A DNA stretch of 64,000 nt from a virus. The position numbers and the translations under genes were made by a program. The notes below the pieces were generated by a model, which was not told the origin of the DNA, did not search any database, and saw only the letters and a program-made list of their open reading frames with translations. Positions 23,874 through 29,714 of this stretch are shown piece after piece; the first letter of the stretch is position 1, and each line of letters opens with the position of its first letter. Location of the stretch: positions 61,558-125,557 of IMG/VR virus record IMGVR_UViG_3300043470_000217. One strand, written 5' to 3'.

Positions 23874-23878
23874 ATTTG

Positions 23879-23972
23879 TAACAGAGACAGGATTTGAACC
23901 TGTGTAAAGTTTACAAGCTTTAACTACCACATTCATTAGTGGTATGCGTTATACCTATTCCGCCACTCTGTT
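23879..23972 (-). ncRNA. tRNA-like RNA A (Leu-type body, enlarged anticodon loop)
   Basis: Acceptor AACAGAG/CUCUGUU + A73, D arm GCG..CGC with GG, T arm ACAGG-UUCAAAU-CCUGU, long variable arm; anticodon stem UACCAC/GUGGUA closes an 8-nt loop UAAUGAAU. Confidence 0.8.
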
Positions 23973-23976
23973 ATTT

Positions 23977-24024
23977 TGCTGTCTTTCCAGCAGTCAACCA
24001 GTGTTCATTTAAAATGCTCTTGGC
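23977..24024 (-). ncRNA. two-hairpin structured spacer RNA
   Basis: GCCA..CAUUU/AAAUG..UGGU followed by UGCUG-GAAAGA-CAGCA. Confidence 0.45.
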
Positions 24025-24029
24025 TTTCG

Positions 24030-24122
24030 TAGTCAGGACAGGACTCGAACCTGTAAGCTTTTTGCCTTAACAAAGGTATCGGACAGAGAATCCAAAAGCG
24101 TCTACCATTCCGCCACCTGACT
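24030..24122 (-). ncRNA. tRNA-like RNA B (Leu-type body, non-canonical anticodon arm)
   Basis: Acceptor AGUCAGG/CCUGACU + A73, D arm GCG-GAAUGGUAGA-CGC, T arm ACAGG-UUCGAGU-CCUGU; loop UUCUCUG lacks purine 37. Confidence 0.8.
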
Positions 24123-24126
24123 ATTT

Positions 24127-24227
24127 AATGTTATTATTGAGTTTACCCACTTATAAATCATAAGCGTTTGCAACCACTTATGGTATTCCTCATTTATTCC
24201 GTTCTTAGCTGTGAGTCTAATAACATT
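24127..24227 (-). ncRNA. ~100-nt structured RNA between tRNA-like RNAs
   Basis: Closing stem AAUGUUAUUA/UAAUAACAUU; inner CAUAAGUG-GUUGCAAA-CGCUUAUG; UGAG/CUCA and UACC/GGUA. Confidence 0.55.
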
Positions 24228-24229
24228 TG

Positions 24230-24302
24230 TACCAGAGACAGGACTTGAACCTGTATCAATGCAGAGAGCTACTCCACAGCGTCACCATTGCGCCACTCTG
24301 GT
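24230..24302 (-). ncRNA. tRNA-like RNA C (short variable region, aberrant anticodon arm)
   Basis: Acceptor ACCAGAG/CUCUGGU + A73, D arm GCG..CGC, T arm ACAGG-UUCAAGU-CCUGU; anticodon loop GUAGCUC (or 5-nt UAGCU). Confidence 0.8.
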
Positions 24303-26820: not shown

Positions 26821-26824
26821 TTTG

Positions 26825-26910
26825 TACTACTAGTGGGAATCGAACCCACACTGACATTGCTGTCAACAGGATTTTAAGTCCTGCGCGTCTACCTATTCCG
26901 CCATAGTAGT
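26825..26910 (-). tRNA. trnL-UAA: tRNA-Leu (anticodon UAA)
   Basis: ACUACUA/UAGUAGU acceptor, CAGGA-CUUAAAA-UCCUG anticodon arm, variable arm UGACA-GCAA-UGUCA, GUGGG-UUCGAUU-CCCAC T arm; CCA not encoded. Confidence 0.95.
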
Positions 26911-27357: not shown

Positions 27358-27384
27358 AAGCAGTTTAGACACATGCTTAGGTGT
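27358..27384 (-). ncRNA. small H-type pseudoknot
   Basis: ACAC-CU-AAGCA-U-GUGU-CUAAAC-UGCUU: stem 1 ACAC/GUGU, stem 2 AAGCA/UGCUU. Confidence 0.45.
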
Positions 27385-27512
27385 TTGTAAGGGATGACTT
27401 CAACTACCTTACTTCAATGGCTCTGTTTTGGTATACTGTATTACTACAGCGGAACAAACCTATCCATCATTTCCGCACTTAAGGCTTTGGAACTTGCCTA
27501 TATGATTTAGTT

Positions 27513-27677
27513 ACTCCACTCTGCATTCAATTGTAATAGAAAGCCAATAACACAAAAATGTTATCCGTTTGGGGCAACTAATTGTTCACCTATAAATAGG
27601 TTTAGTGTCTGTCCATGCTTTATATCTCGCTACTACAATTGCTATCCCTTGTGAAGATAGTTATGATGCATTAAAGT
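27513..27677 (-). ncRNA. twister self-cleaving ribozyme (type P1) with extended P5
   Basis: P1 ACUU/GAGU; L1 UAA and GAGUG; P2 UGCA/UGCA; P4 CUAUC/GAUAG with loop UUCACAAGG; T1 CAC/GUG; 12-bp P5 CAAUUGUAGUAG/CUAUUACAAUUG. Confidence 0.8.
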
Positions 27678-28040
27678 TGGTTAGGTTCTCGTACTAACCC
27701 CTATAACTTGCTTTTACTTGTTATAGACGCAGTGGCTTCACTATGGTTTACACCATTTCCCCCCACTGTTGTTATCTTTTAGCCATATAATGGCCCATTC
27801 GTCCCCACCTAATCCCACTTCTTACCAGTTTGTGATAAGTGTAGTTTTGATGAGAAGGTTGTTTGTCACTCTCTCTCACACCCTTACAACTGTCCACTGT
27901 ATTATACAGTTTGTCATGAAAAAGTTAAACATTATGACAATTGTCTCAAGAATTACGGGGTTTATAGTTTCAAAAGTTAAACAAAACTATTTTTCCTCTC
28001 TTACTAGAAGTTTGATTATATAGTGGTTTCTATATAAAAG

Positions 28041-28073
28041 AAAAAAAAAGAGATAGGTGTAACCCTATCTCTT
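28041..28073 (-). terminator. intrinsic terminator after ORF 28087
   Basis: AAGAGAUAGG-GUUACA-CCUAUCUCUU followed by a long U run. Confidence 0.7.
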
Positions 28074-29016: not shown

Positions 29017-29625
29017 TTAATTTATACCGTAGTAGTAGTTGTCCGTATCTTCTGCCACCCATCTATCACTTTGGTTTTCTACACTAGGTAGTTCTGTATC
29101 TACTTTGTATGATGTAGGGTGTAATGGGAAATCTTTAGTTACCCAGTTAGAGTCTTTCCAGTATATCCGGTTATTAGGCATGCATAGTAAGTAGCCATCT
29201 TCACTCACTAGTATATGTCCGGCTTTATAGTCACTTGGTTCATCACTGTATGGGTTATTGTACCAGTCTACTGTAAATAGGTAATTGGCCCAGATCATTG
29301 TTTTGTCTTTTAGAATTACCTGGCATCTGTGCTCACTTAAGAAGTCATAGTGTACTACGCTTACGTTTTCACTAAAGCAATCCCATAGTTGTTTGAAGTG
29401 AAAGGGGATATCGTTATCACACTCCTTAGTATATATCTCACTTATGGGTACTCTGGATCTTACCATACCGTAGTCAGTAATAACGTGAAAGGTTAGTATT
29501 TTACCCGCTACACTTTGTACCCCGAATACATAGATGTTATCATATTCTGTGTCCTCTGTATTCTTAGTGAGATAAGCCCTTTTTATTAATGCTTTGAAGT
29601 GAGGTATATTTGAGTTTAGAACCAT
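29017..29625 (-). CDS. conserved phage hypothetical protein
   Basis: LNSNIP...QLWDCFS...YLFTVDW...PNNR; TATATTTG promoter at 29629-29636. Confidence 0.75.
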   Translation of the reverse strand: MVLNSNIPHFKALIKRAYLTKNTEDTEYDNIYVFGVQSVAGKILTFHVITDYGMVRSRVPISEIYTKECDNDIPFHFKQLWDCFSENVSVVHYDFLSEHRCQVILKDKTMIWANYLFTVDWYNNPYSDEPSDYKAGHILVSEDGYLLCMPNNRIYWKDSNWVTKDFPLHPTSYKVDTELPSVENQSDRWVAEDTDNYYYGIN

Positions 29626-29714
29626 GATCAAATATATACCCAATTATTTTAGTATGTATATTTGTTAATAATTTGTTAGTGGTGGTAAATATATAAAGTG
29701 TAAACTTGTATATT

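Follow-up and report, generated by a model that had tools for sequence, protein, structure and literature searches.

Genomic Setting of the Element

The window, a 64,000-nt (64-kb) stretch of the 125,557-bp record of an uncultured lake phage, holds on its minus strand a 165-nt element (27677-27513) flanked by leftward genes and followed by a tRNA gene (Table 1). The leftward block is headed by a gene for a 208-aa protein (29017-29643, minus strand) that matches phrog_3704 (ferredoxin; host-takeover/auxiliary category) with an E-value of 5.9e-41; a PHROGs comparison of ten neighbouring proteins assigned no function to the leftward genes flanking the element. On its upstream side, the element is preceded by a 163-aa gene with a terminator-like hairpin behind it, and by a weak sigma-70-like promoter match from which its transcript could start. 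Such matches are no commoner in the window than in shuffles (5 found, against a mean of 6.6), and the consensus would be inapplicable if the host belongs to the Bacteroidota. A G-rich segment of about 120 nt (27779-27900, minus strand), also upstream, is about 80% identical in four other loci (L002, L003, L004 and L006) and, when read as a 41-aa ORF with a GTG start, shows 53-65% protein identity; it may encode a small protein or act as a non-coding RNA.

Downstream, a 75-aa hydrophobic ORF (27300-27073) starts 211 nt after the element, and the tRNA-Leu(UAA) gene lies beyond it on the same strand, so that the original prediction of an element upstream of, and co-directional with, this tRNA is borne out. 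Just after tRNA-Leu, a match to freshwater-1 RNA (RF02979; 26654-26723, minus strand) reaches 53.2 bits (E 3e-10), below the gathering score of 72; the syntenic site of a related locus (L007, 3875-3937, likewise after a tRNA) scores 75.6 bits, above gathering. Farther along the same strand, positions 23878-24302 hold three tRNA-like genes whose anticodon regions are enlarged: in one the anticodon loop measures 8 nt and ARAGORN assigns no name, and a tRNA-Glu(CUC) and a tRNA-Ala(AGC) carry expansions of 28 and 13 nt, respectively. These enlarged regions may be introns, or the molecules may be unusual decoders. A 28-nt segment, 96% identical, lies downstream of the element in the window (27358-27385, minus strand) and directly upstream of it in L002 (5209-5236), a displacement that points to local rearrangement around the cassette.

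Anatomy of the Window Copy

The element has the layout of a twister ribozyme of type P1, without P3 and with an auxiliary P5, and the coordinates and pairings originally given for it on the minus strand proved correct throughout. P1 joins A27677-U27674 to G27516-U27513 through A-U, C-G, U-A and U.G pairs. The presumed general acid at the predicted cut is directly followed by A27671, which completes a UAA at 27673-27671. P2 joins U27670-A27667 to U27525-A27522, with U27666-A27526 as a fifth pair, and A27527 stands between A27526 and the 3' strand of P5. The L4 loop comprises the 5' strand of pseudoknot T1 (27653-27651), two adenosines (27650-27649) and two guanosines (27648-27647). T1 itself is formed by C27653, A27652 and C27651 with G27519, U27518 and G27517, which is the CAC/GUG pseudoknot of the original prediction; compensatory classes of this pseudoknot occur in relatives (see below). 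P5 is a 12-bp helix (27641-27630 with 27539-27528) that carries its insert at exactly the predicted borders. The further statement that all twister core elements are present stands as to their presence and is to be qualified by three deviations: L4 has one U more, the closing pair of P4 is flipped, and T2 includes a U.G wobble. The whole 165 nt fold with a z-score of -2.88 relative to shuffles, and the minimum-energy fold keeps P1, P2, P4 and P5; it also lengthens P4 to 7 bp, thereby sequestering L4 nucleotides that T2 needs.

Table 1. Parts of the window copy, features in its vicinity and a truncated form found in other loci.
Feature	Position	Strand	Basis
Whole twister-type element, putative ribozyme (type P1, no P3, P5 with insert)	27513..27677	-	sequence, fold, covariance model
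P1 5' strand, ACUU	27674..27677	-	sequence; family pairing
P1 3' strand, GAGU	27513..27516	-	sequence; family pairing
Predicted scissile step U27673^A27672 (A, presumed general acid)	27672..27673	-	sequence; cleavage inferred
P2 5' strand, UGCA, plus U27666 (fifth P2 pair or outer T2 pair)	27666..27670	-	family alignment
P2 3' strand, A27526 followed by UGCA	27522..27526	-	family alignment
C of T2 5' strand, partner G27648	27665..27665	-	C-G in 80/87 distinct copies
L2 junction, AUAA (no P3)	27661..27664	-	sequence
P4 5' strand, CUAUC	27656..27660	-	family pairing
L4 loop, UUCACAAGG (9 nt)	27647..27655	-	sequence; family conservation
P4 3' strand, GAUAG	27642..27646	-	family pairing
P5 5' strand, 12 nt	27630..27641	-	sequence; family pairing
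Lineage-specific 90-nt insert capping P5	27540..27629	-	cluster and fold analysis
P5 3' strand	27528..27539	-	sequence; family pairing
G27521 (presumed general base) and A27520 (A.A partner of A27650)	27520..27521	-	roles inferred from twister structures (PMC5408937)
T1 3' strand, GUG	27517..27519	-	102/106 exactly complementary in family
Terminator-like hairpin with U run, after the upstream 163-aa gene	28048..28073	-	sequence scan
Sigma-70-like promoter match (10/12), weak; could start the transcript	27901..27928	-	promoter scan
tRNA-Leu(UAA), 602 nt downstream of the element	26824..26910	-	tRNA search
Truncated form of the element	L083:9875-10017, L020:2421-2584, L112:467-638, L118:3360-3486, L125:2420-2544, L015:7449-7632

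Searches and Covariance Models

Two loci with the core of the window copy and different P5 caps, L002 and L006, were reached through relatives of the upstream 163-aa gene. A 27-nt degenerate motif of the 5' core, derived from these loci, matches the window once at up to two mismatches, with any match in 0 of 100 shuffles and an expected count of 0; a pattern search at up to three mismatches found one copy in the phage record. A leave-one-out covariance model (R2), built from 50 other copies with the window excluded, scores the window copy at 81.4 bits (E 1.7e-22) and returns it as the only hit at E<=0.1 in the 64 kb, searched on both strands with filters off. With the window copy included, the model gives 83.5 bits, and the second-best hit falls to 14.9 bits. 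Because the core motif is absent from shuffles, and in view of the R2 score and the folding z-score, a chance origin is excluded.

The check originally proposed, a search with the Rfam twister models, gave nothing: in the 601 nt around the element, the Rfam 15 models for twister types P1, P3 and P5 and for twister-sister have no match at E<=10. The type P1 model RF03160, whose gathering threshold is 67.2 bits, likewise reports nothing at E<=10 on the whole virus record; the twister models find no match at E<=10 on a 141-nt stretch with the smallest family member and none at E<=1 on five family loci. At gathering score, the only Rfam 15 matches in the window are four tRNAs. Given the lack of an Rfam 15 twister hit, together with the extra L4 U, the flipped P4 closing pair and the variant T2, the element is filed as a divergent twister subfamily outside the catalogued Rfam family. 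A literature search returned no description of this phage subfamily, and supplementary seed alignments and descriptors (Roth 2014; Weinberg 2015; PMC11662667) could contain such variants.

A Large, Phage-Borne Subfamily

The subfamily is large, borne by phages and missing from the Rfam catalogue, and the window copy is an intact member of it. At least 119 stretches of IMG/VR contigs contain the 5' core motif. In the loci and the window together it was counted 130 times, and in 118 cases a 3' core of the expected kind, complementary at T1, follows within 330 nt; among the remaining 12 are copies whose 3' core has point changes and one that is truncated where its locus ends. The pairing counts given here refer to 107 distinct complete copies, many of which come from related phages, so that the counts are not independent events, with several distinct pair types present per position.

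All five P4 positions are paired in every one of the 107 copies, with compensatory changes at four of them. The four P1 pairs, in order, are formed in 91, 89, 87 and 81 copies, and A-U, U-A, G-C and C-G pairs are all seen; the innermost is a U.G in 46 copies, U.G wobbles being common and a strand-specific feature of RNA. P5 positions 1-9 are paired in 95-105 copies. The P2 sequence is fixed by the search motif, and copies found by the model include the variants UGCG/CGCA and UGUA/UACA. L2 measures 3-4 nt in other copies and is variable.

The T1 pseudoknot was tested with the 3' half picked by P5 pairing only: 102 of 106 distinct copies show exact complementarity, where 2000 shuffles average 45.6 and reach 60 at most, and these copies fall into the classes CCC/GGG (61), CCA/UGG (24) and CAC/GUG (17, the class of the window copy). 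An alignment of the whole structure with both pseudoknots (A1; MAFFT) took in 51 of the 107 copies, namely the window copy and those with a P5 domain of up to 80 nt, less 8 near-identical rows removed by hand. In it, 92.9% of cells are paired (78.5% in shuffles) and 23 of 31 pairs change on both sides, a result that 0 of 500 shuffles reach; controls with a slid structure give 28-47%. The rows of this alignment were preselected for T1 complementarity, and the unbiased test of T1 is the 102 of 106 count. On these sequence comparisons, P1, P2, P4, P5 and T1 all covary.

The positions presumed to carry the chemistry are likewise retained. Among 87 distinct model-aligned copies, decayed ones included, the nucleotide after the predicted cut is A in 83, the G after P2 is kept in 79 and the A next to it in 81; the second A of the UAA is found in 85 of the 87. 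The C-G of the C27665/G27648 type is invariant in intact copies and accordingly offers no covariation.

As to its distribution, the subfamily was found only in uncultured phage contigs and in MAG contigs. Searches by blastn with the 601-nt region and with a consensus-like family member gave no match among 50,697 deposited phage records, and among 185,579 species genomes 11 contigs match, all from MAGs; 6 of the 11 score 79-88 bits with R2, and 6 carry labels of Bacteroidota lineages. In some contigs two or three copies stand in tandem, separated by a few hundred bases and differing in their P5 caps (three copies in L056:9832-10871; further arrays in L019, L023, L027, L076, L081, L083 and L037), and further copies were detected by the model only. 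A truncated form also recurs, in which a common short sequence replaces the 5' strands of P2 and P4 and in which L4, P5 and the 3' core are kept (Table 1); the truncated copies could be relics of one ancestor or a distinct split form.

The genomic setting of the family is directional. No same-strand ORF of at least 60 aa overlaps a complete copy, both nearest ORFs are co-directional with the element at 61 of 109 sites, and a copy lies a median of 134 nt before the next ORF start and 243 nt after the previous ORF end. The tRNA link of the window recurs across the family: of 48 tRNA genes within 5 kb, 45 lie downstream on the same strand (417 kb examined upstream, 391 kb downstream). The closest coupling seen is in L098 (1924-2074, minus strand), where a tRNA-Gln begins 1 nt past the end of the element. 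Two close relatives, L007 and L008, retain the tRNA and the freshwater-1 RNA and carry no copy of the element in the 8.5 kb examined, which shows the element to be dispensable.

Relation to Known Self-Cleaving Ribozymes

The order of parts is that of twister (RF03160) as described in PMC5408937 and PMC11662667: P1, the N^A-A cut, P2, an 'NC', L2, P4/L4, P5, the returning strand of P2, G-A, the 3' strand of T1 and the returning strand of P1. The same three-pair T1 links L4 to the 3' side of L1, the tertiary pairs of twister being described in PMC5408937, and the first 7 nt of the rice twister L4 match the family's L4 core, U-NNN-AAG (PMC11662667). Published criteria for twister, as given in PMC11662667, comprise an 'NC' as 5' strand of a two-pair pseudoknot, a complementary three-pair pseudoknot, an 'NA' cut and the catalytic A and G.

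Differences are concentrated around L4 and T2. The family L4 has 9 nt (UU CNN AA GG) compared with 8 nt in the rice 16-mer of P4/L4 (U CCC AA GC; PMC11662667); it contains one U more and ends in G, where rice L4 ends in C. Within the main motif, the search for copies with a non-U at the first or a non-G at the last L4 position returned 0 contigs, and most of the rare variants that the model alignment shows at these two positions are decayed copies. For the P4 closing pair the family mostly has C-G (89 of 107 copies, with U-A in 12, A-U in 3, U.G in 2 and G-C in 1), whereas the account of twister in PMC5408937 calls a G-C pair here 'essentially invariant'. In T2, an inner C-G pair is possible in all 107 copies, and an outer pair, if formed, would be C-G in 79 copies and U.G in 28. 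The outer pair is without covariation support; the pyrimidine at the 5' side of T2 covaries instead with the purine before the 3' strand of P2 (C-G in 77, U-A in 27, other combinations in 3 of 107 copies), so that P2 would have five pairs. One reading that preserves the height of the helical stack combines five P2 pairs, a single C-G pair in T2 and a U.G that closes P4; according to a suggestion cited in the review PMC5408937, a P2 lengthened or shortened by pairs may disturb the active site.

Two further groups of ribozymes invite comparison. Twister-sister (PMC5408937) is also a small self-cleaving RNA found near phage-related genes, with vaguely similar helices and a conserved A 3' of the cut. 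Its cut lies on the other strand of the loop, and it is described without pseudoknots, whereas the T1 of the present family covaries and its UAA lies on the twister side; these features speak against a twister-sister identity. Bacterial hammerhead and twister ribozymes near phage genes resemble the family in being intergenic, co-directional with genes and often placed several close by (PMC6765202; PMC10085705), and processing of polycistronic transcripts has been proposed for them in the same sources. As reported there, they reside in bacterial genomes with their strongest gene associations to Mu-like phages, whereas the present family resides in genomes of large uncultured lake phages and has a one-sided link to downstream tRNAs.

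In light of these comparisons, the window element is quite probably a cis-cleaving twister-type ribozyme, with cleavage predicted from its sequence. That it is instead a conserved structured RNA with a twister-like fold that makes no cut, such as a protein- or nuclease-recognition element or a stabiliser of phage transcript 5' ends, is unlikely, even though the Rfam twister models fail to recognise it, it departs from twister at the near-invariant positions listed above, and its P5 stem is conserved in sequence beyond the needs of pairing, as might be expected of a site bound by protein. More than 100 copies retain the UAA of the predicted cut, the G-A behind P2 and the T1 contact, with a T2 contact possible, and no other known function requires this exact combination. 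Moreover, a mass cleavage assay of natural twisters found that pseudoknot wobbles, insertions and helix imperfections are tolerated (PMC11662667), so the deviations of the family are no strong argument against activity.

The P5 Insert

P5 is an optional, highly variable stem-loop in twister, with a P5/L5 region for which no consensus is described (PMC11662667). In the present family the stem is a conserved 11-12-bp sequence, and the cap above it ranges from 0 to about 150 nt, with a natural minimal member at L043:11136-11204. Family P5 domains span 12 to 171 nt, and blast clustering of 96 inserts, trimmed of the stem, yields 78 groups. The insert of the window copy is common only to L019 and L027, where the twelfth P5 pair, G-C in the window, reads by eye as A-U; one of its hairpin motifs recurs in L056 and L062.

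The original prediction saw in this insert a structured domain that might serve as cargo or regulator. The three stems named for it exist in the sequence and are used by the centroid fold. The insert alone, however, folds like shuffled sequence (z -0.68, with 54 of 200 shuffles folding equally well), which weakens its description as a structured domain. Since the insert is neither conserved nor measurably structured, a role as aptamer, cargo or regulatory domain is unsupported. It looks like a hypervariable, tolerated, fast-changing add-on outside the catalytic design, probably swapped by recombination between copies.

The family could also be a true ribozyme and the window copy an inactive, misfolded member, owing to the 90 nt themselves, to a weak 4-bp P1 or to the U.G of T2. 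In favour of this, many family members are decayed or carry point mutations, the insert alone forms no stable fold, and the lengthened P4 of the minimum-energy fold would compete with T2. Against this, every core position of the window copy equals the family consensus, and its R2 score lies within the range of intact copies; otherwise intact copies carry inserts of 12 to 171 nt, the four helices are all present in the minimum-energy fold, and more than a quarter of the copies share the T2 wobble (28 of 107). Inactivity of this particular copy within an otherwise active family is thus highly unlikely.

Contigs from RNA Libraries

Material from RNA libraries was available as assembled Logan contigs, in which RNA ends are not visible and which are not proof of transcription. 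The libraries contain small shares, 0.06-0.13 of the sampled words, and four of them, labelled wetland, lake water and freshwater, were compared. In their contigs, parts of the flanks and of the element's 3' half recur almost unchanged, and positions 27680-27848 are covered. None in the four libraries bridges the predicted cut with the window's own sequence, one contig (X4) stopping at 27680; contig coverage around the cut is evidence neither for nor against cleavage. P5 caps differ in these data as well: one contig of a relative has the same stem with 67 other letters replacing exactly 27541-27629, and in a second contig 105 other letters replace 27543-27675.

Similarity in such contigs of relatives breaks exactly at the 5' edge of the element and at the insert borders, some family contigs bear multiple copies or tandem arrays (three in L056), decayed copies exist, and presence or absence differs among close relatives, all of which could be expected of a DNA-level element (a mobile inverted-repeat cassette or recombination site) conserved through its spread as DNA rather than through an RNA function; this is hardly credible, as orientation tracks the direction of flanking genes, the U.G wobbles and the covariation of the pseudoknot are intelligible only in RNA read from a single strand, neither a target-site duplication nor a transposase was noticed in an unsystematic inspection, and spread as DNA is in any case compatible with ribozyme function.

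Proposed Mechanism and Role

As a self-cleaving twister, the element would act as follows. When the leftward transcript, presumed early in the original prediction, is made, P1, P2, P4 and P5 would fold, and L4 would dock by way of T1 (CAC with GUG) and T2 (C27665 with G27648), bringing G27521 and A27672 to the U27673-A27672 phosphodiester. The RNA would then cut itself into an upstream piece ending in a 2',3'-cyclic phosphate and a downstream RNA that starts with a 5'-OH and bears the whole folded ribozyme at its front. Such a cut would separate the upstream RNA from the part with the small membrane-protein gene, tRNA-Leu and the freshwater-1-like RNA without the help of host nucleases, and the folded ribozyme may shield the new 5' end. 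Possible users of 5'-OH or cyclic-phosphate ends, namely RtcB (PF01139) and an RNA ligase (PF09414), were not found in the phage record.

Most probably the element would serve phage transcripts as a self-processing site in front of genes and tRNA/ncRNA units, which agrees with proposals made for bacterial twister and hammerhead ribozymes in a review (PMC6765202). A more elaborate picture may be drawn, in which the family follows a structurally separate twister design: P2 would gain a fifth pair at the expense of one in T2; the extra L4 U would close P4 as a U.G and keep the height of the stacked helices; the sequence-conserved P5 stem would be a socket for the recombinational exchange of unrelated RNA modules between copies; and ribozyme and module together would head and protect the tRNA/ncRNA-bearing transcripts of large lake phages. 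As a whole, this picture is doubtful.

Significance

If the family cleaves, well over a hundred natural twisters would be added to those known, with active-site surroundings that deviate at near-invariant positions and could thus test how far the twister core can be changed. Rfam-based annotation misses what would be a common ribozyme of uncultured phages. The hypervariable P5 caps offer a natural catalogue of insertions that twister would tolerate, which would be useful for the engineering of ribozyme switches. Lastly, the directional pattern of the family, that is, its co-directionality with genes, its position nearer to the start of the next gene than to the end of the previous one and its placement upstream of tRNAs, bears on the purpose of self-cleaving ribozymes in bacteria and their phages.
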